37,859 nucleotides of DNA, from the IMG/VR virus record IMGVR_UViG_2541047757_000015; one strand, written 5' to 3'. The DNA comes from a virus (lineage: Duplodnaviria > Heunggongvirae > Uroviricota > Caudoviricetes). Shown one piece after another: positions 386 through 23,851 of the stretch. Made by a program: the position numbers and the translations under genes. The notes under the pieces were generated by a model. The model was not told where the DNA came from, did no database searches, and saw only the letters and a program-made list of their open reading frames with translations. Numbering within the stretch: position 1 is the stretch's first letter; each line of letters opens with the position of its first letter.

Positions 386-1624
386 ATGGCGCTGTCTGAT
401 GCGTGGTTGCGTTCAGTCGTTGGAAAGGAACGTGATAAGGTTTTGGTTAAATCCGATCGTGATGGTCTGTCTGTCAGAGTATCACCGAAAGGTCGCGTAG
501 TGTTCCAATATCGTTATCAATGGGCAGGGAAAGGTGAGCGCCTTGATATCGGAACTTACCCGGCAACTGGATTAAAAGAGGCCAGAGAAGAAGTTATCCG
601 TCTCCGTGGTGAACTCGAGTCAAACCGCAATCCACGATTAGTCAAGCAGGCTGAAAAACGAAAAGCTACTGAAGCCATGACGGTAGAGTCTGTGATCCGT
701 GCCTGGTATGAAGCATATTGTGTAAAAAATAAAAAAGGTTCTGAACAGATACTCCGCTCGTTTGAGCTGCACCTGTTCTCTAAAATCGGGAATATCCCTC
801 ACGATGCAGCTACATTGCATGATTGGTTAGAAGTCCTAGAGCCTCTTAGCACCAAGACTCCAGCAATAGTAGACCGATTGCTAATTAACGCAAAGCAGGC
901 TCATGTCTGGGCGTATAAGAGAAAGCTCATTGAAACTCGCCCACTGTCGGATATCACGGGTAAAGATATGGATATCCGTAAAGGTCAGAAAAAACGGTTT
1001 CTGACACATGATGAAATTAACATCCTTTATGCTGCGATCGATGGTTCTCGAATGGTTCCTAAATACCGAGCCTTCATTAAACTATTGCTGCATTTTGGTT
1101 GCCGTAGTTCAGAGCTAATTACTGCTAGGGTGGATGATTTTGATTTCATAAATAAGGTATGGACTGTACCACCAGAACGACATAAGACTGGGGACATAAC
1201 AGGCGAACCGCTAAAGCGGCCCATTATTGAACCGGTTGAAGAGCTTATAAAATACGTTATCTCTATGAACAACGGTTCCGATATGCTTTTTACTAAGGAA
1301 GGAAGCAGGGAGCCAGTTGGTCGGACATCATTGCAGTCGCTGCCTTACAATTTAATGCAGTTCGCATGGCGACGTTTGGGGTATCAATTTCCTCATTGGT
1401 CTCTTCATGATTTGAGACGAACAGCACGAACAAACTTTTCTGATCTTACTGCTCCTCATATTGCTGAAATAATGCTCGGTCATAAACTGCCAGGGGTATG
1501 GCAAGTTTATGATAAGAGCGATTATCTAGAAGAACAGCGTAAAGCCTATCAGGCATGGTGGGATAGGGTTGATTCGATTCTTACTTACACTAATTTAGGT
1601 TCCAACAGACAGCCTATTGAATAA
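386..1624 (+). CDS. Tyrosine-type site-specific integrase (phage integrase family)
   Basis: 412-aa ORF with ATG start and AGGTGA ribosome-binding site; C-terminal HxxR...Y-type catalytic region (WSLHDLRRTARTNFSDL ... GHKLPGVWQVYDKSDY); sits at the prophage end next to the prfC fragment. Confidence 0.9.
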   Translation: MALSDAWLRSVVGKERDKVLVKSDRDGLSVRVSPKGRVVFQYRYQWAGKGERLDIGTYPATGLKEAREEVIRLRGELESNRNPRLVKQAEKRKATEAMTVESVIRAWYEAYCVKNKKGSEQILRSFELHLFSKIGNIPHDAATLHDWLEVLEPLSTKTPAIVDRLLINAKQAHVWAYKRKLIETRPLSDITGKDMDIRKGQKKRFLTHDEINILYAAIDGSRMVPKYRAFIKLLLHFGCRSSELITARVDDFDFINKVWTVPPERHKTGDITGEPLKRPIIEPVEELIKYVISMNNGSDMLFTKEGSREPVGRTSLQSLPYNLMQFAWRRLGYQFPHWSLHDLRRTARTNFSDLTAPHIAEIMLGHKLPGVWQVYDKSDYLEEQRKAYQAWWDRVDSILTYTNLGSNRQPIE

Positions 1625-1776
1625 TGAATAGACATACAGAGTAAGAAAATAGTAATGATTCTTGGATTATAATTAACTGGTTGCTGATATTTCGATTTGC
1701 CGATTTATGAAGAGACGGTCATTATACTTATAAAAACACCACTCCTTATCCTTACAGAAATAAGGAGTGGAAACAG

Positions 1777-3372
1777 TTATGGCTGAGACTCTGGTTTAGC
1801 AATCTCGTTTATAAATTTCTTAGCTACAACAGTCTCATACTTTCTATAATCATCAAGATATTGAACATCTATATGATTTTTGTAGCGAGCATTAAATTTA
1901 TTTGCATCCCCTGTTTTATCATCTTTACGTTCATCCGTTGGTCTGAAAAATTTATGGTAGCGGCGGGGTGATACCCCCTCAAAATCACAAAATATTACTT
2001 TGGAAGATTCTTCGTTCTTTGTTATTGCATCATTATGCAGATCAAGAGCAAGGCTTTTATCAAATGGCTCTATATATACTACTTTTTTTATTCCAGATGC
2101 GACAATATGCCTTGCACAGTTGTGGCAGGGATAGGTTGTCGTAAAAAGAATTTTATCTTTAGTATCGCCGTTTTGTTTTCTAGCCATTGATGTAATGACG
2201 TCCATTTCAGCATGAATTGATCTGGAGTACTCCATTACACTTGATATTTTGCTGTCTTTGTAAATGCCTTCTGCAATATTATCTAATTTGTTTAGAAGTC
2301 GTGTTATATTAATATCGGCAACAGTTTGTCCTGCGGAAATACCTAATACACTTCTTACTTCGGTTGATAATATGCTTTTTATACGGTCTTTAATTTTTTG
2401 CTTGTTTGCATCATTATAACACTTACCACTTTTGTGAACGCATCGATGATCGTTATCAAAATCATCACTGCTATACAACCCGCCACCAGCTTTAGGTACG
2501 TCGTTCTTACCCACGGCAAGCAAATTCCCTTCATCATCAAACAGTGCAGCCCCTACTTGACGTGATAAACAAGCTGATTGTAATGATGTTGAAAAGGCAG
2601 CATACATACCTTTCTCGTTAAAAGTTGGTGTTAAACCATTTTTGCCATGAATAAGACCGAAAAACCGATCAATCTTCTTCTTTAATTCACTTTTTTGGCT
2701 GAAGTTATTTTTAATAAAAAAATCTGAATCAAGAATGGTTTCCCCGGTTCTTTGTCCATACGGATCAGAGGATTTATTATCAATATTAATAATTAAATGA
2801 AGGTCGTCCTTTGTCGATTCGTCAGCAATGAGATTCGTAATTCGGTAATCTAAATCGCGCAAAACTCCTAACAAATAGAAATTATGCTGATATATAACTC
2901 TGAATAACTCTATTTCTTCCGGCCTTTTGAATTGATCAATGATGAAGACAGTACCTTTATATTCATCATTATTATAATCAATATTCTTTTTCGCTGCTGC
3001 GATTGCTGCAATAGCAGCTTCTGCAAGCAACTCATTTTTTTCGTAATGTTTACGAAGTTTATTGGCAATATCCTGGAGTTTTAAATGTCTATTAACTTGT
3101 GTGCTTTCGGATACCTTCAGTGCTGCTGGCTCAAAATATAATGGGTCTTCCATAAGCGCACTTATGCGGATGTGTACAACATTATACCCCCATTCTTTGG
3201 ATATCTCTTCGATAATTTTGTTTATCGTTTTCATTCCACATCCAACATATCCACATAATCCAAGATAAATATCTTTTGATTGTCGTGAATTCACAATCTC
3301 AAGTGATGATGCCGATGTTGAGCCTTTTTTTTCATTCAGCTTTTGTGGAGTTTTTTTTGCTGCTTCAGCCAT
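1777..3372 (-). CDS. Two-domain protein: N-terminal P-loop/kinase-like region plus C-terminal cytidine/dCMP deaminase domain; AvcD/DCD-like candidate anti-phage dCTP deaminase
   Basis: 531-aa ORF, ATG start. C-terminal zinc-binding deaminase motifs HAEMDVI and PCHNCARHI; N-terminal glycine-rich GYVGCGMKT; markedly AT-rich compared with neighbours; inserted between int and xis. Confidence 0.75.
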   Translation of the reverse strand: MAEAAKKTPQKLNEKKGSTSASSLEIVNSRQSKDIYLGLCGYVGCGMKTINKIIEEISKEWGYNVVHIRISALMEDPLYFEPAALKVSESTQVNRHLKLQDIANKLRKHYEKNELLAEAAIAAIAAAKKNIDYNNDEYKGTVFIIDQFKRPEEIELFRVIYQHNFYLLGVLRDLDYRITNLIADESTKDDLHLIINIDNKSSDPYGQRTGETILDSDFFIKNNFSQKSELKKKIDRFFGLIHGKNGLTPTFNEKGMYAAFSTSLQSACLSRQVGAALFDDEGNLLAVGKNDVPKAGGGLYSSDDFDNDHRCVHKSGKCYNDANKQKIKDRIKSILSTEVRSVLGISAGQTVADINITRLLNKLDNIAEGIYKDSKISSVMEYSRSIHAEMDVITSMARKQNGDTKDKILFTTTYPCHNCARHIVASGIKKVVYIEPFDKSLALDLHNDAITKNEESSKVIFCDFEGVSPRRYHKFFRPTDERKDDKTGDANKFNARYKNHIDVQYLDDYRKYETVVAKKFINEIAKPESQP

Positions 3373-3382
3373 TGCTAATTAC

Positions 3383-3568
3383 CTAGTCGAAAACTATATC
3401 AGTATTTATTATTTCAAAAAATGCATCAAGAATTTCTTTATTTTTCTTTTTACTTTCAAATGAAATGACATTATCTTGATTAAATGTTGTTAATTCAATG
3501 CAGATAGAATCAACCTGATCATTGGCGGCGATGCTCGATTCTATTTCATTAAATGCTATTACATTCAT
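3383..3568 (-). CDS. Small acidic ORF (61 aa) directly upstream of the deaminase gene; may instead mark an AvcI-like antitoxin RNA locus
   Basis: ATG start, stop 10 nt before the deaminase start, same strand; AT-rich; no recognisable protein family. Coding versus RNA status cannot be decided from sequence alone. Confidence 0.35.
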   Translation of the reverse strand: MNVIAFNEIESSIAANDQVDSICIELTTFNQDNVISFESKKKNKEILDAFFEIINTDIVFD

Positions 3569-3912
3569 TTATCTTATCCAAACATAATAAAAAACCATAT
3601 GGCCTTTAGTGTACAACAAAACCATACTCTTTCCCCTCATTTTAGAGGGGGAAGTGTGGTCCACATCATGTTTTTTCCCACCCATGAAAATGTTCACCTA
3701 GGCTGGTGAGGCATTTTATGCACATCAACTCTTTGAGTTGAATCATTATTTTAGTATTTTTTCTATCATTGTGTAAATGTCTTCGTTTCAATACATCATG
3801 CTTGGGGAGCGGTCCCCGTTTCCTGATAATTAATGCTTGTGGATAGCAACGTCCGTGCCTATATCGCTCAGACAGACGCTTACCGTGCCATAGACGTGTC
3901 TGTTCACATACG

Positions 3913-4107
3913 TCATTCAATAACTCCTGCAAACCTGTAAATCTTGCGTGACGCCCATTTATTTGGGCATGATTTAATATCAGGATCTGGAAAATCAGGC
4001 CTGTACTTCTGGCCAGTTCTCCGGTTTACGCTGTTCCAGCGAAGAACTGTCGATACTGAAACGCCACAGAATTCGGCAACTTGTTTTGTTGTCATTAAGT
4101 TGTTCAT
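3913..4107 (-). CDS. Excisionase / AlpA-family helix-turn-helix DNA-binding protein
   Basis: Internal start MNNLMTTKQVAEFCGVSVSTVLRW (HTH); its ATG overlaps the stop of the upstream gene (TAATG coupling); position next to the integration module. Confidence 0.6.
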   Translation of the reverse strand: MNNLMTTKQVAEFCGVSVSTVLRWNSVNRRTGQKYRPDFPDPDIKSCPNKWASRKIYRFAGVIE

Positions 4108-4502
4108 TAGTTCACCTTCTGCGGTTGTGCAGTTGAAAGACTCATTCCAGCGCGTTGCTGCCAGACAACCCAGCCGAGAGCCATATCCCATGCCATGTAC
4201 TCGTTATCGCCGTTTTTGGCTCTCCGACGATCTACTGAGTCACCGAAACGCTTTTCCATGAATAATTCATAAGATATTCGTTCATTTGTGATGGTCATTA
4301 CGGGAGGAGCTAGGTAGAGAGGCGTTCCACCATTTTTGTTGGTAAGTGCAACTACACTTTTACTCAGCATCCATGCCACCGGCTTTTTATCAAGAGAAGC
4401 CAAAGCTATTTGTGCTAGTTCCATTTGCTCGCCACGGGTAAGTCTGTTTTCAAGCGGATTTTTAATGAATAATTCGATACGTTCTTTGGTAATAGAATTC
4501 AT
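4107..4502 (-). CDS. Hypothetical early-left operon protein (CPS-53 YfdT-like position)
   Basis: 131-aa ORF, ATG start 1 nt after the upstream stop; same strand as neighbouring early genes. Confidence 0.55.
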   Translation of the reverse strand: MNSITKERIELFIKNPLENRLTRGEQMELAQIALASLDKKPVAWMLSKSVVALTNKNGGTPLYLAPPVMTITNERISYELFMEKRFGDSVDRRRAKNGDNEYMAWDMALGWVVWQQRAGMSLSTAQPQKVN

Positions 4503-4503
4503 G

Positions 4504-4866
4504 CTATTTCACCTTGATCTCAACATTTCGCAGCCGTAGCTCCACTGGCAGGTCTGACTTTCCGGTTAAAGCTAATGCGAGATTTTCTAGAGTAATGAGA
4601 GCTGTTATTGTTTTCCCCATCCAGGCGTTATCACCAACACGCTCAAGATGCGGAGGGTCGAATACAACCACCGAAAAAGATGCGTCTGCAAATGGTAATG
4701 CACGAGAATCAGCTATCAGGTCAGGACTGATAATCAGGCGTTGCCCATCGCACAATGTATGCTCTTCCTTTCTGATATCGCTGAATATCGCCCGTTCGTC
4801 ATTTGTATCGAACCAGAACATGCGACTGCCACAGCACATGTCGAGGATTGCTGCATGTCCAGTCAC
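4504..4866 (-). CDS. Small protein (120 aa) carrying SAM-methyltransferase-like motifs I and IV only
   Basis: GTG start overlapping the upstream stop (GTGA); motifs AILDMCCGSRMF (FxGxG-like) and VVFDPPH (DPPY-like); too short for a complete DNA methyltransferase. Confidence 0.5.
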   Translation of the reverse strand: MTGHAAILDMCCGSRMFWFDTNDERAIFSDIRKEEHTLCDGQRLIISPDLIADSRALPFADASFSVVVFDPPHLERVGDNAWMGKTITALITLENLALALTGKSDLPVELRLRNVEIKVK

Positions 4867-5213
4867 TGGTTGCCCCCTTTGCGAAGCCGTTCCGCCCATT
4901 CTTCAAGGGATTTCTCCGCATATTCACCAGACAGGCCATCAATCGGATGCGATTCATTAGCTAACTCTTCTTTCGCTGACAGAATCATGCGTGTAACGTC
5001 GAAAACTTCAGTCAAAGGCTTATTGATAAATCCGTGATTGAAAGCAGAAGCAAGACGGCTTGCGGTATAGTTAATACCCTCGTTGCGAGCCTCAGCACGT
5101 ACTTCATCGAATTTACGCACCAGATACTCAGCATTTGTTTCATTCACTTTCAGATCTCGCGGTACACATTTCCCGCGAAGAAAACCTTCCATTTCGAAAA
5201 CATTTATGCGCAT
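4863..5213 (-). CDS. Hypothetical prophage protein
   Basis: 116-aa ORF with protein-like composition, in the same leftward gene string; start codon uncertain. Confidence 0.45.
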   Translation of the reverse strand: MRINVFEMEGFLRGKCVPRDLKVNETNAEYLVRKFDEVRAEARNEGINYTASRLASAFNHGFINKPLTEVFDVTRMILSAKEELANESHPIDGLSGEYAEKSLEEWAERLRKGGNQ

Positions 5214-5740
5214 TTGCGTAACTCCGATAACTCGTTAAAACGTTCCATAAACATCCCGTAGGCATGGCCTGGTGACAGTGGAATAACTTTGAACATCTCT
5301 GTTGCCGGGATGCCTTCCAGTACAGGCCAGAAAGAGCCATCATCAAGCCCGAGATCACGGCGTTCGGTTGCCAGCATGATTAGATCGGCATATTTCACAG
5401 GCGTACTCATAACCGGGGGCAACTCGTATTTCTCACGGATTACTGCGTCTATTTTTTCTTCCATCCGTTTATAGTCAGGAAGAAGGCGTTTCAGTGGTGC
5501 GGGGATGTCCTGGCAATACGCTTCTGTTGCATCATGCATTAACGCTTCAAAAGCAAATTCCTGCGGCACCAGCTGGCTGCAAAGCACCGCATGTTGGGCG
5601 ACGCTGTAGAAGTGAGAAAGATGACCGGCAAAGCGGCAGATATTTGAAAGGGAAACCGCGATATCGTTAATCACGATGTCGTTTTTATTTATCTTGTCAT
5701 AATAAAAATGCTTCCCGGAAAAAGTTTTAATAAATGACAT
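5204..5740 (-). CDS. yfdR: HD-domain phosphohydrolase (YfdR-like 5'-deoxynucleotidase family)
   Basis: HD motif region SVAQHAVLCSQL ... ALMHDATEAY; internal ATG preceded by GGAG gives 178 aa, the length I recall for CPS-53 YfdR. Confidence 0.7.
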   Translation of the reverse strand: MSFIKTFSGKHFYYDKINKNDIVINDIAVSLSNICRFAGHLSHFYSVAQHAVLCSQLVPQEFAFEALMHDATEAYCQDIPAPLKRLLPDYKRMEEKIDAVIREKYELPPVMSTPVKYADLIMLATERRDLGLDDGSFWPVLEGIPATEMFKVIPLSPGHAYGMFMERFNELSELRKCA

Positions 5741-5867
5741 TTTGTTCTCCACGTATATGCACTGCACCGCGCTGAATTCTGGTAAAAGGAAGCCCTCACC
5801 ATCCGGTGATTATTGAGTTAATTACGTTTCCATAAATGCCCCCGCAGGGGCATTTGCAGTAATGAAA

Positions 5868-20897: not shown

Positions 20898-21925
<1,028 letters not shown>

Positions 21926-22285
21926 ATTAATATTAAATCGGATTATTTTTAGCGCTGAATGTGAAATTTAAATAAAAAGGACTCTTCCATGAGTCAAAAT
22001 CCTTGAAATCTTAAGGGTAAGATAAAAGGTCATTAGACAGAATGACACGTTTTATTAATAAATAAAGCTATTGTTTCATTCGTGTGTTTTTCTTTACAAA
22101 AGTAATCCTTGCTATGGTTGGTTAATCATGCGTTAATGGTGTTCTGGTTTGTTACAAAATTATCTGAAGCAGTCATTGTTATAATTTTATTATTTGTACC
22201 TCTTGAGATTTCCTTGTTGGTTTTTCTCTCTGATATTTTTTTTCGGACCATTCTGCCCAAGGGCTAACTTCTTCAAAAGGTAATA

Positions 22286-22501
22286 ATGATGTTTAACAAA
22301 ATGACTGGTTTAGTGAAATGGTTTAACCCTGAAAAAGGTTTTGGTTTCATCACGCCGAAAGATGGTAGCAAAGATGTGTTTGTGCATTTCTCAGCTATTC
22401 AGAGCAACGATTTCAAAACGTTAACTGAGAATCAGGAAGTCGAATTTGGTATTGAGAACGGACCTAAAGGCCCTGCAGCTGTTCATGTAGTGGCACTTTG
22501 A
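22286..22501 (+). CDS. cspI: Cold-shock protein CspI-like
   Basis: [38 protein letters not shown] ... cold-shock domain. Confidence 0.85.
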
Positions 22502-22705
22502 GGTAGAAAATATTACAAACCATATTCACTTTAGATGCCCGTGTTGCCATGGTTCTCAGTATAGAACATCATCTTTTGATGTTTCTGACAGAAATCCTTT
22601 CGGGGCAAAATGTATCTTTTGTAAATCAATGATGATTACATTTGATAATATTTCACAATACTTAAATGTTAGCCATCTGTCGTTAGATTTAAGAAAGTGA
22701 AAATG

Positions 22706-22728
22706 AAGGCTCCTTCGGGAGCTTTTTT
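22706..22728 (+). terminator. Candidate rho-independent terminator
   Basis: GCTCC-TTCG-GGAGC followed by TTTTTTG. Confidence 0.4.
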
Positions 22729-22772
22729 GCTTAGTGTCTAGTCGATGGATACTCACATATTACGGTAACATT

Positions 22773-23003
22773 ATGAAAAAAATAATAGTTTTTTTTAACT
22801 CTGAACCAGCAATGGTAGTGCCAGTGATGACCGGAGTTAACACCATCATGCGTGAATATCCAAATGGCGAAACAACACACCTCACTGTAATGGCTGCAGG
22901 GTTTCCATCTCTGACCGGAGATCATAAAGTCATTTATGTAGCAGCGGATCGACATGTAACTTCAGAAGAAATTCTGGAAGCAGCAATGAGACTCTTGAAT
23001 TGA
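22773..23003 (+). CDS. Hypothetical small protein
   Basis: Internal ATG (MKKIIVFFNSEP...); ~76 aa. Confidence 0.4.
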   Translation: MKKIIVFFNSEPAMVVPVMTGVNTIMREYPNGETTHLTVMAAGFPSLTGDHKVIYVAADRHVTSEEILEAAMRLLN

Positions 23004-23172
23004 TTTGATTCTAATGCATTGATAATAAATGATAATCATCTTTATCTGTTTGTGTGAAATTTAGACCGTCGTATGTTGATTATTGCGATGTTTCATCTTA
23101 TCTTTTATACGTTTGCTCCATATAATTGACACTACTGTGTACCAGGACAGTCATAACAGACTAAAAGAGGAA

Positions 23173-23349
23173 ATGATGAACATTGAAGAGTTAAAAACAA
23201 AAACAGAAGCAGATATTTCTGAATATATAACAAAAAAAATCATTGAGCTTAAGAAAAAGACCGGGAAAGAAGTTACCAGTATCCAGTTTACTGCACGGGA
23301 AAAAATGACTGGTCTTGAAAGCTATGATATCAAGATTGATTTAATCTAG
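23173..23349 (+). CDS. GnsA/GnsB-family small protein
   Basis: Internal ATG with AAGAGG ribosome-binding site; MNIEELKTKTEADISEYI ... FTAREKMTGLESYDIKIDLI resembles GnsB as I recall it; ~58 aa. Confidence 0.6.
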   Translation: MMNIEELKTKTEADISEYITKKIIELKKKTGKEVTSIQFTAREKMTGLESYDIKIDLI

Positions 23350-23644
23350 CATGTTTATAGTATTAGCATCAATTTCTCATCAGATGCTATTCAACAATAC
23401 AAATTACCCATAAACCTCGTTTTTACGGGGTTTTGTTATATTTAAACATTACCGAATAGATATAAATCTCGATTGTCAATGGTATTGGTTGTGTGACAAT
23501 ACCTAGTCTTTCCGGTATGCCTGAAGAGAATACAAACGACAGATTATGTAAGGGAAACGCGCTGAAACTTTCACTCTTTCATGCTGAGTGATTTGACGTT
23601 ATATTTTTAGCCGCAAGTGAAGAGCAAACGAATGGAGCGACAAA

Positions 23645-23851
23645 ATGCATAAAGATCAATACACTGATGCCCCCTCCCAGGAGCAGGTTCGTGTAAAAAC
23701 TATGCTTAATAGCACCATTTCGATGGGTTACCCGGATGTTGTAATTGCATGTATAGAACATCAAGTATCTCTGGAAGCATTCAGGGCAATTGAGGCCGCG
23801 TTAGTAAAGCACGATAAGAATACGAAGGATTATTCCCTGGTGGTTGACTGA
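23645..23851 (+). CDS. Hypothetical small protein
   Basis: 68 aa, ATG with GGAG ribosome-binding site; no family recognised. Confidence 0.45.

Follow-up and report, generated by a model that had tools for sequence, protein, structure and literature searches.

This analysis concerns a 37,859-nucleotide stretch of viral DNA (IMG/VR virus record IMGVR_UViG_2541047757_000015, Caudoviricetes; hereafter the window) and two adjoining reading frames on its minus strand. The larger of these, avcD (also dcd), is an ATG-to-stop open reading frame (ORF) at 1777..3372 that family models identify as coding for a 531-amino-acid (aa) anti-phage dCTP/dCMP deaminase. The smaller is a 61-codon (186 nt) ORF at 3383..3568 that ends 10 nt before the avcD ATG and thus occupies the position of AvcI, the antitoxin of this family. 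Together with a terminator downstream and a control region upstream, the two lie within a putative acquired cargo module (1630..3787, minus strand) whose limits are set by its GC content and by its identity to Budvicia DNA. The original prediction, made from the sequence alone, had proposed avcD as a candidate nucleotide-depletion defense gene. The family was named correctly, but the system is one that had already been annotated and characterized, and the second part of what is a two-part module, the 61-codon ORF upstream, had been overlooked.

Sequence analysis and structure prediction both divide the avcD product into two domains, an N-terminal P-loop-kinase-like (PLK) domain (about residues 30-245; 2638..3285, minus strand) and a C-terminal zinc-dependent domain of the dCMP-deaminase fold (about residues 250-480; 1933..2625, minus strand). 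Over residues 35-483 the protein scores 468.1 bits against the NCBIfam equivalog NF041025, “anti-phage dCTP deaminase”, for which the cut-off is 400 bits. The PADLOC dCTPase model (PDLC02373) matches with an E-value of 9.9e-165, and Pfam recognizes the cytidine/deoxycytidylate deaminase zinc-binding region (E 4.8e-15). These full-length family matches, together with identities of 45% and 44% to the AvcD proteins of V. cholerae and V. parahaemolyticus, respectively, and of 62% to the E. coli variant P0020, bear out the proposal of an AvcD/DCD kinase-deaminase fusion. A tblastn search against plasmids found P0020 to be 99.1% identical to a gene on the 5.8-kb plasmid NC_017723.1 of enterotoxigenic E. 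coli (ETEC) H10407, and it is this E. coli AvcD that Hsueh et al. tested. An identical protein is present in RefSeq as WP_021529725.1, “MULTISPECIES: anti-phage dCTP deaminase [Escherichia]”, on 336 contigs. The assignment to AvcD/DCD is therefore already known, as the family was characterized in 2022 and this exact protein is correctly named in RefSeq. A sequence search of the PDB with AvcD returned single-domain dCMP deaminases only, and no solved structure of AvcD or of an AvcD-AvcI complex was found.

The catalytic and nucleotide-binding motifs are well conserved. The deaminase motifs H387-A-E389 (2206-2214, minus strand) and P415-C-x-x-C419 (2116-2130, minus strand), on which the original prediction relied, consist of residues (H387, A388, E389, P415, C416 and C419) that are invariant in 39 sequences, as judged from alignments with 7 and with 38 homologues. 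The P-loop-like motif of the N-terminal domain that had also been proposed is present in a deviant form. In its Walker-A-like part it reads G38-L-C40-G41-Y-V-G44-C-G46-M-K48-T49 (3226-3261, minus strand) and is accompanied by a Walker-B-like D146-Q147 (2932-2937, minus strand), with C40, G41, G44, D146 and Q147 invariant in the homologue alignments. The residues that were mutagenized in the Vibrio systems are all kept in the window protein. Specifically, it retains counterparts of V. cholerae AvcD S52, D162/Q163, H382/E384 and C411/C414, and mutation of S52, D162/Q163, E384 or C411/C414 inactivates the V. cholerae enzyme. In E. coli AW1.7 DCD, mutations in the kinase motif (G29/C30) and in the zinc site likewise abolish defense. 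Values of pN/pS between 0.13 and 0.30 relative to related genes indicate purifying selection on both AvcD domains. By every feature testable in silico, the gene at 1777..3372 is thus a member of the AvcD/DCD family, with ETEC H10407 AvcID as its closest validated relative.

Two other readings of the gene were tried and rejected. A chance ORF or pseudogene was discarded on account of the invariant motifs and the pN/pS values. A housekeeping ComEB or phage Cd-type enzyme was discarded because the ComEB equivalog TIGR02571 reaches 39.9 bits against a cut-off of 219.45 bits and aligns with residues 384-448 only, and because a 531-aa protein with an extra domain contrasts with single-domain enzymes of about 150 aa.

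The 61-codon ORF fits the positional definition of AvcI, which is a small element or ORF of about 170-190 nt located directly 5' of avcD in the same orientation. It is unannotated in the best-matching RefSeq genomes (strain 13TMH22, for example) and appears in others as the hypothetical protein WP_040091656.1. Its product corresponds to phrog_9966 (E 2e-43), and small proteins of this type form 54 clusters across the Enterobacterales, all of 61-63 aa and always labeled “hypothetical”. Hsueh et al. describe V. cholerae AvcI (DifV) as a 174-nt element, itself an ORF, that lies directly 5' of avcD, shares its orientation and inhibits AvcD post-translationally and in trans. Inhibition survived both mutation of the start codon to a stop and removal of the ribosome-binding site (RBS), for which reason they class AvcI as a small RNA (sRNA). 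They also report that the small ORFs 5' of avcD in V. parahaemolyticus, Proteus and ETEC inhibit their cognate enzymes, and state that the small ORFs share no amino-acid similarity. Later work established for the V. cholerae and V. parahaemolyticus systems that AvcI decays once transcription is shut off, leaving AvcD active so that dC pools are depleted. As late as 2025, AvcI was described in a review as non-coding RNA.

One explanation of the locus would accordingly treat the small ORF as an incidental frame within a purely non-coding, type III-like sRNA antitoxin, with no peptide made or none that matters. The V. cholerae start-codon and RBS results favor this explanation, as does the usage of reviews up to 2025 and a covarying hairpin in the window-type element that is described below. 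A comparison of 77 genomic loci with avcD homologues, together with the loci of characterized systems, argues against it on several grounds. Of the 49 loci whose upstream DNA is AT-rich, 44 have an ORF of 48 codons or more on the avcD strand that ends at most 150 nt from the gene. The median length of the upstream ORF is 61 codons, as opposed to 28 in shuffled sequence, with 33 of the 49 loci individually reaching p <= 0.05. ORF length is therefore held in AT-rich DNA, and an upstream ORF of about 50-80 codons recurs across more than 40 independent avcD loci, among them the window and the systems studied in V. cholerae and V. parahaemolyticus. Of 41 ORFs, 31 have a Shine-Dalgarno 4-mer ahead of an in-frame start, as compared with 8% of background windows.

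The small ORFs fall into two sequence types. The first (the W type, or Vibrio type), comprising 32 distinct ORFs from many genera, ends in the pattern ...A(-14)-x3-[VIL](-10)-x3-A(-6)-x2-L(-3)-x-W-stop, which is that of most Gammaproteobacteria, as exemplified by V. cholerae (...ATRALLEQAKQLGW) and V. parahaemolyticus (...ATQSLIDQASKLGW). The second (the window type) ends in ...K-[ER]-E-x-[LI]-x-[AS]-F-x-[EK]-I-x3-[DE]-I-[IV]-[FL]-D-stop and has members in the window, Budvicia, Morganella, E. kobei, Pantoea, Citrobacter and ETEC H10407; for the Enterobacterales clade of the window the motif can be condensed to ...K-E-x-L-x-A-F-x-E-I-x3-[DE]-I-[IV]-F-D-stop. All 32 distinct sequences of the first type share the terminal Trp-stop. 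Over the last 21 codons, nucleotide entropy shows codon periodicity in both types. At the first, second and third codon positions the W type has values of 1.38/1.15/1.61 (permutation p = 0.003), and the window type has 0.58/0.26/1.00 (p = 0.0001). At the conserved Ala(-6) the corresponding values are 0.45/0.20/1.58, and codons for conserved Ala, Leu, Val and Ile residues vary almost at random in their third position. For nine computable pairs of window-type ORFs, dN/dS is 0.05-0.40 in frame and about 1 in the two shifted frames (most pairs 0.5-1.6). As read from these alignments, such coding signatures would mark the small ORF as a translated gene under selection, as distinct from conservation of an RNA sequence. 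Conservation is concentrated in the last ~20 codons, and the N-terminal half varies. The AlphaFold model, which is of low confidence (pLDDT 61), has a single C-terminal helix (residues 37-55), with the rest disordered and the N-terminal half of low confidence.

Homology between the two types is unproven. The hhalign probability linking them is 13%, and a profile search run exhaustively over 1.84 billion proteins recovered only 12 window-type representatives at 50% identity and no bridge to the W type.

In addition to its coding signal, the window-type element contains a candidate RNA structure. RNAalifold places a 10-pair hairpin at 3497..3550 (minus strand), within codons 7-24 of the small ORF. 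The fraction of paired alignment cells is 86.7% in this hairpin, as compared with 32-51% in slid controls. Double-sided changes affect 7 of the 10 pairs, the covariation score was reached by none of 500 shuffles, and z is -6 relative to column shuffles. This support is suggestive and not conclusive because there are nine sequences and the structure was derived from the same alignment. For the Vibrio-type ORFs a codon-based alignment, crude given the great divergence of the sequences, gave no consensus RNA structure, a point against a purely RNA-based reading. For the window clade we infer that the small-ORF transcript may have a dual function, with the covarying hairpin serving an RNA role and the same transcript being translated into a conserved peptide.

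The stop codon of the small ORF also stands in close relation to avcD. A TAGG at 3382..3385 (minus strand), 10 nt before the avcD ATG, makes the stop overlap the Shine-Dalgarno-like AGG of avcD. The sequence GA[TC]-TAG-G is invariant in nine of nine distinct window-type loci, where the gap to the avcD ATG is 8-12 nt. This overlap suggests translational coupling, or occlusion of the avcD ribosome-binding site.

Taken together, we regard it as evenly poised whether the supposedly non-coding AvcI locus is a conserved translated small gene or dual-function RNA. The explanation in which the frame is incidental to an sRNA appears improbable to us, given the dN/dS contrast between frames, the third-position pattern and Trp-stop, the codon periodicity, the maintained ORF length and the Shine-Dalgarno motifs. 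Slightly less probable again is that the ORF encodes an arrest-type leader peptide, the last 15-20 residues of which would act in the ribosomal exit tunnel at the stop codon to control avcD translation or transcript stability and would not function as a free protein. Concentration of conservation in the codons leading up to the W-stop or FD-stop, the TAGG overlap of the window type and the predicted C-terminal helix in an otherwise disordered chain speak for such a peptide, and there is a general analogy with TnaC and SecM, which are known arrest peptides. Against this, AvcD inhibition is reported to be post-translational and in trans, and occlusion of the Shine-Dalgarno sequence is not applicable to the Vibrio type, where the gap to avcD is 24-85 nt. 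The searchable literature, which does not include the final 2022 papers where it may be noted, makes no mention of a conserved AvcI peptide. Family-wide conservation of the AvcI locus at the peptide level may thus be the new part of this work.

The base composition of the module sets it apart from its surroundings. GC content is 0.353 in avcD and 0.344 in the block 1630-3787, as compared with 0.44 in int, 0.43 in xis and 0.481 in the whole window, so the gene is indeed more AT-rich than its flanks. The block has the lowest GC of all 2158-nt stretches in the window. Budvicia aquatica DNA is 85% identical over exactly 1630-3787 and over nothing outside these limits, the context there being otherwise unrelated. 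Morganella DNA shares 1720-3700 and Enterobacter kobei shares 1789-3598. As the closest non-E. coli loci match only there, the mobile unit consists of the terminator, avcD, the small ORF and ~220 nt upstream. The terminator is a strong intrinsic one (1739..1770, minus strand; 13-bp stem, 6-nt loop and T-rich tail) that begins 7 nt past the avcD stop and is the sole terminator found for the module. On the upstream side, a -10-like box TACACT (3608..3613, minus strand; TAAAAT or TAGAAT in relatives) lies ~40 nt before the small ORF within a TGT.GTA..A.T block kept in nine of nine aligned window-type loci, and a promoter role for it is plausible from this conservation. A sigma-70 promoter-like site, TTTACA-18-TAAAAT with 10 of 12 matches, is present at 3748..3777 (minus strand) in the stretch shared with Budvicia. 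The region contains 8 promoter-like sites where 10.9 are expected from shuffles, and because this count is not above chance the individual sites are suggestions only. Transcription is predicted to start near 3601 or 3740. Just upstream of the -10-like box there is also a G+C-rich stem-loop, CCCCCTCTAAAATGAGGGG (3633-3651, minus strand), that is kept in Budvicia and Morganella and has no T-tail; it could insulate the module against transcription from the xis side.

The block 1625-3912 occurs in 49 of 5426 complete E. coli genomes. The pair of avcD and small ORF is also found at a prophage end beside icd, inside conjugative tra regions, in V. cholerae VSP-1, and on 4.6-5.9-kb mobilizable (Mob) plasmids of E. 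coli and Klebsiella. AvcID variants of 50-62% identity are the main cargo of such plasmids in E. coli and Klebsiella pneumoniae, and on the 5.8-kb plasmid of ETEC H10407 the AvcID module sits beside a RelE/helix-turn-helix toxin-antitoxin pair. Decayed copies are present in E. coli 08-00022 and N96, with IS1A inserted in the promoter region, ~70 nt ahead of the small ORF, and IS421 in the avcD 3' end; the avcD annotations of decayed copies are 5'-shortened, at 505 and 442 aa. A set of bovine E. coli strains retains only the equivalent of window positions 1966-3623.

On one side the module is flanked by a tyrosine integrase gene (int; 386..1624, plus strand) with a P4-type arm-binding domain (Pfam Phage_integrase, Arm-DNA-bind_3 and Phage_int_M). 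On the other lies an excisionase-like helix-turn-helix protein gene (xis; 3913..4107, minus strand) whose product shares 97% identity with the excisionase annotated in phage cdtI, although its match to Pfam HTH_17 falls below the cut-off of that model. An attL core, CATTATTTCTCACC, occurs once, at 141-154, and is the 14-bp att core described for Stx2c phages. The first 6 kb of the window are 99.8% identical to several complete E. coli chromosomes, where they adjoin yjjG. Given this yjjG-side match and the single att core, the window represents the left part of a lambdoid prophage. The original prediction had avcD splitting the int-xis pair. The gene does sit between the two, but no operon is split because int and xis are convergent, and avcD instead fills a moron slot of variable content. 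Phage cdtI has in this slot a 710-aa protein (orf33) with a CHAT domain that matches PADLOC BovA (Borvo) with an E-value of 2e-241, and avcD is missing from most related phages. The finding of Borvo in this slot supports the view of avcD as acquired defense cargo, which was part of the original prediction and which the low GC content of the block and its 85% identity to Budvicia also uphold. Stx2c phages have a 517-aa protein in their int-xis slot (phrog_13820, function not known; no PADLOC match) that could be a defense candidate not yet described.

Comparison with characterized systems places the window module closest to ETEC H10407 AvcID (NC_017723.1; Hsueh et al. 2022), with which it shares the PLK + DCD architecture and motifs at 62% identity over the full length. 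The upstream 61-codon ORF of ETEC is of the same type as that of the window, ending in ...KEII[FL]D-stop with the TAGG 8-12 nt before the avcD ATG. ETEC AvcID lowers dCTP/dCMP and protects against T3 and SECphi17/18/27. It is located on a small mobilizable plasmid, unlike the window module in its prophage int-xis slot, and the small proteins of the two are only ~22% identical. Since ETEC AvcI inhibited only its own AvcD in cross-inhibition tests, AvcI and AvcD partners are probably not interchangeable. The AvcID systems of V. cholerae VSP-1 and V. parahaemolyticus (DcdV-DifV) resemble the window in having a 56-58-codon ORF upstream of avcD on the same strand. This ORF is, however, of the other sequence type (...A..L..A..LGW-stop) and is separated from avcD by 76-77 nt in place of 10, and Vibrio AvcD proteins contain a ~20-30-residue insertion in the deaminase domain that the window protein does not have. 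The DCD proteins of E. coli AW1.7 and U09 (Tal et al. 2022) belong to the same family according to the PADLOC dCTPase model. AW1.7 DCD, likened here by family model and description, has 576 aa as opposed to 531 and was described as a single-gene system, although it was cloned with its native upstream region. Tal et al. 2022 reported that dCTP is depleted upon T7 infection and that T7 escapes by means of gp5.7, an inhibitor of host RNA polymerase. Homologues that have been shown to protect against phage are those of ETEC, V. parahaemolyticus, AW1.7 and U09. More distant are ComEB, T4 Cd and the bifunctional dCMP/dCTP deaminase of PBCV-1, which have the same zinc-deaminase fold and HAE/PCxxC chemistry but neither an N-terminal kinase-like domain nor an upstream inhibitor locus.

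On the basis of these likenesses we consider it very probable that 1630-3787 is a horizontally acquired nucleotide-depletion defense module of the AvcID/DCD type that an E. coli lambdoid prophage carries as a moron in its int-xis slot, with its activity being a prediction. The steps of the mechanism are drawn from the homologues in V. cholerae, V. parahaemolyticus, ETEC H10407 and E. coli AW1.7. By analogy with these, the small-ORF region and avcD would be co-transcribed constitutively in the lysogen, and a labile, abundant product of the small-ORF region would hold pre-made AvcD inactive after translation. Infection by a lytic phage that shuts off host transcription would allow the inhibitor to decay, and the freed AvcD would then deaminate dCTP and dCMP to dUTP and dUMP. 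Phage DNA replication would be starved and virions would be defective without obligatory death of the host, such that the lysogen, and hence the prophage, would be protected.

Several observations weigh against this interpretation. The Walker A motif of AvcD is non-canonical (G-x4-G-M-K-T), a feature that is family-wide, with K, R, H or N at position 48. Beyond the one hairpin the consensus RNA structure is weak (-3 kcal/mol), and an Rfam scan of 1500-4300 at E <= 1 yielded no RNA family. Promoter assignments for the module consist of consensus matches only. Translation-independent inhibition is shown, in the accessible portions of the literature, for V. cholerae only, and for window-type elements (ETEC, Proteus) these portions describe use of the whole ORF region. 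Finally, IS-disrupted or truncated copies in some E. coli lineages indicate that the module is dispensable, and possibly costly in some backgrounds.

Two other roles for the module as a whole were weighed. It might act mainly in addiction, that is, as a toxin-antitoxin (TA) module stabilizing mobile elements by post-segregational killing, with defense being secondary. The TA-like architecture, the presence of the pair on small Mob plasmids, in conjugative tra regions and at prophage ends, and the published filamentation that results from unrestrained AvcD are all compatible with such a role. We nevertheless judge it unlikely, as homologues measurably protect against phage from their native promoters, AvcD over-expression is reported to be non-lethal and not abortive, and the same slot carries Borvo in phage cdtI. 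That the avcD product is instead the phage's own dCMP deaminase, comparable to T4 Cd or host ComEB and supplying dUMP for thymidylate synthesis in lytic growth, is highly improbable given that the extra kinase-like domain is essential in homologues, that the best full-length matches are to the anti-phage family, and that the gene has its own terminator, occupies a moron slot at the lysogeny end and is missing from most related phages.

Other features of the prophage were observed in passing. The prophage early-left operon encodes YfdR (5204..5767, minus strand), an annotated 5'-deoxynucleotidase, so that a second dNMP-metabolizing enzyme is encoded only ~1.8 kb from the dCTP deaminase; the two could conceivably interact in function, for instance to clear dUMP. 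A 131-aa ORF at 4504..4899 (minus strand) contains a ...VVFDPPH... motif and is represented in RefSeq, in a matching genome, by two incomplete pseudogene fragments; by eye it resembles a DNA methyltransferase, and we take it to be a probably degraded phage methyltransferase. A second AT-rich island at ~21900-23700 (GC 0.33-0.36) has no ORF of at least 100 aa but several of 60-90 aa, and looks like another moron slot. By position alone, we presume its flanking ORFs to be lysis genes and terminase. Within the island, the ORF at 22286..22501 resembles by eye a cold-shock protein.

The prophage int-xis slot provides a clean case of a defense-gene hotspot, with AvcID here and Borvo in cdtI. Calls of a “single-gene” dCTP deaminase, of the kind made by PADLOC and in DefenseFinder style, miss an upstream partner that is unannotated in most RefSeq records of the locus. 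If the AvcI locus does encode a peptide under selection, this peptide would be an unrecognized third player that could act as a co-inhibitor, a sensor or an arrest-type leader peptide, and the “type III TA” class may need revision, at least for the window-type clade. The regulation and triggering of nucleotide-depletion defense would then be more complex than an RNA-decay timer.

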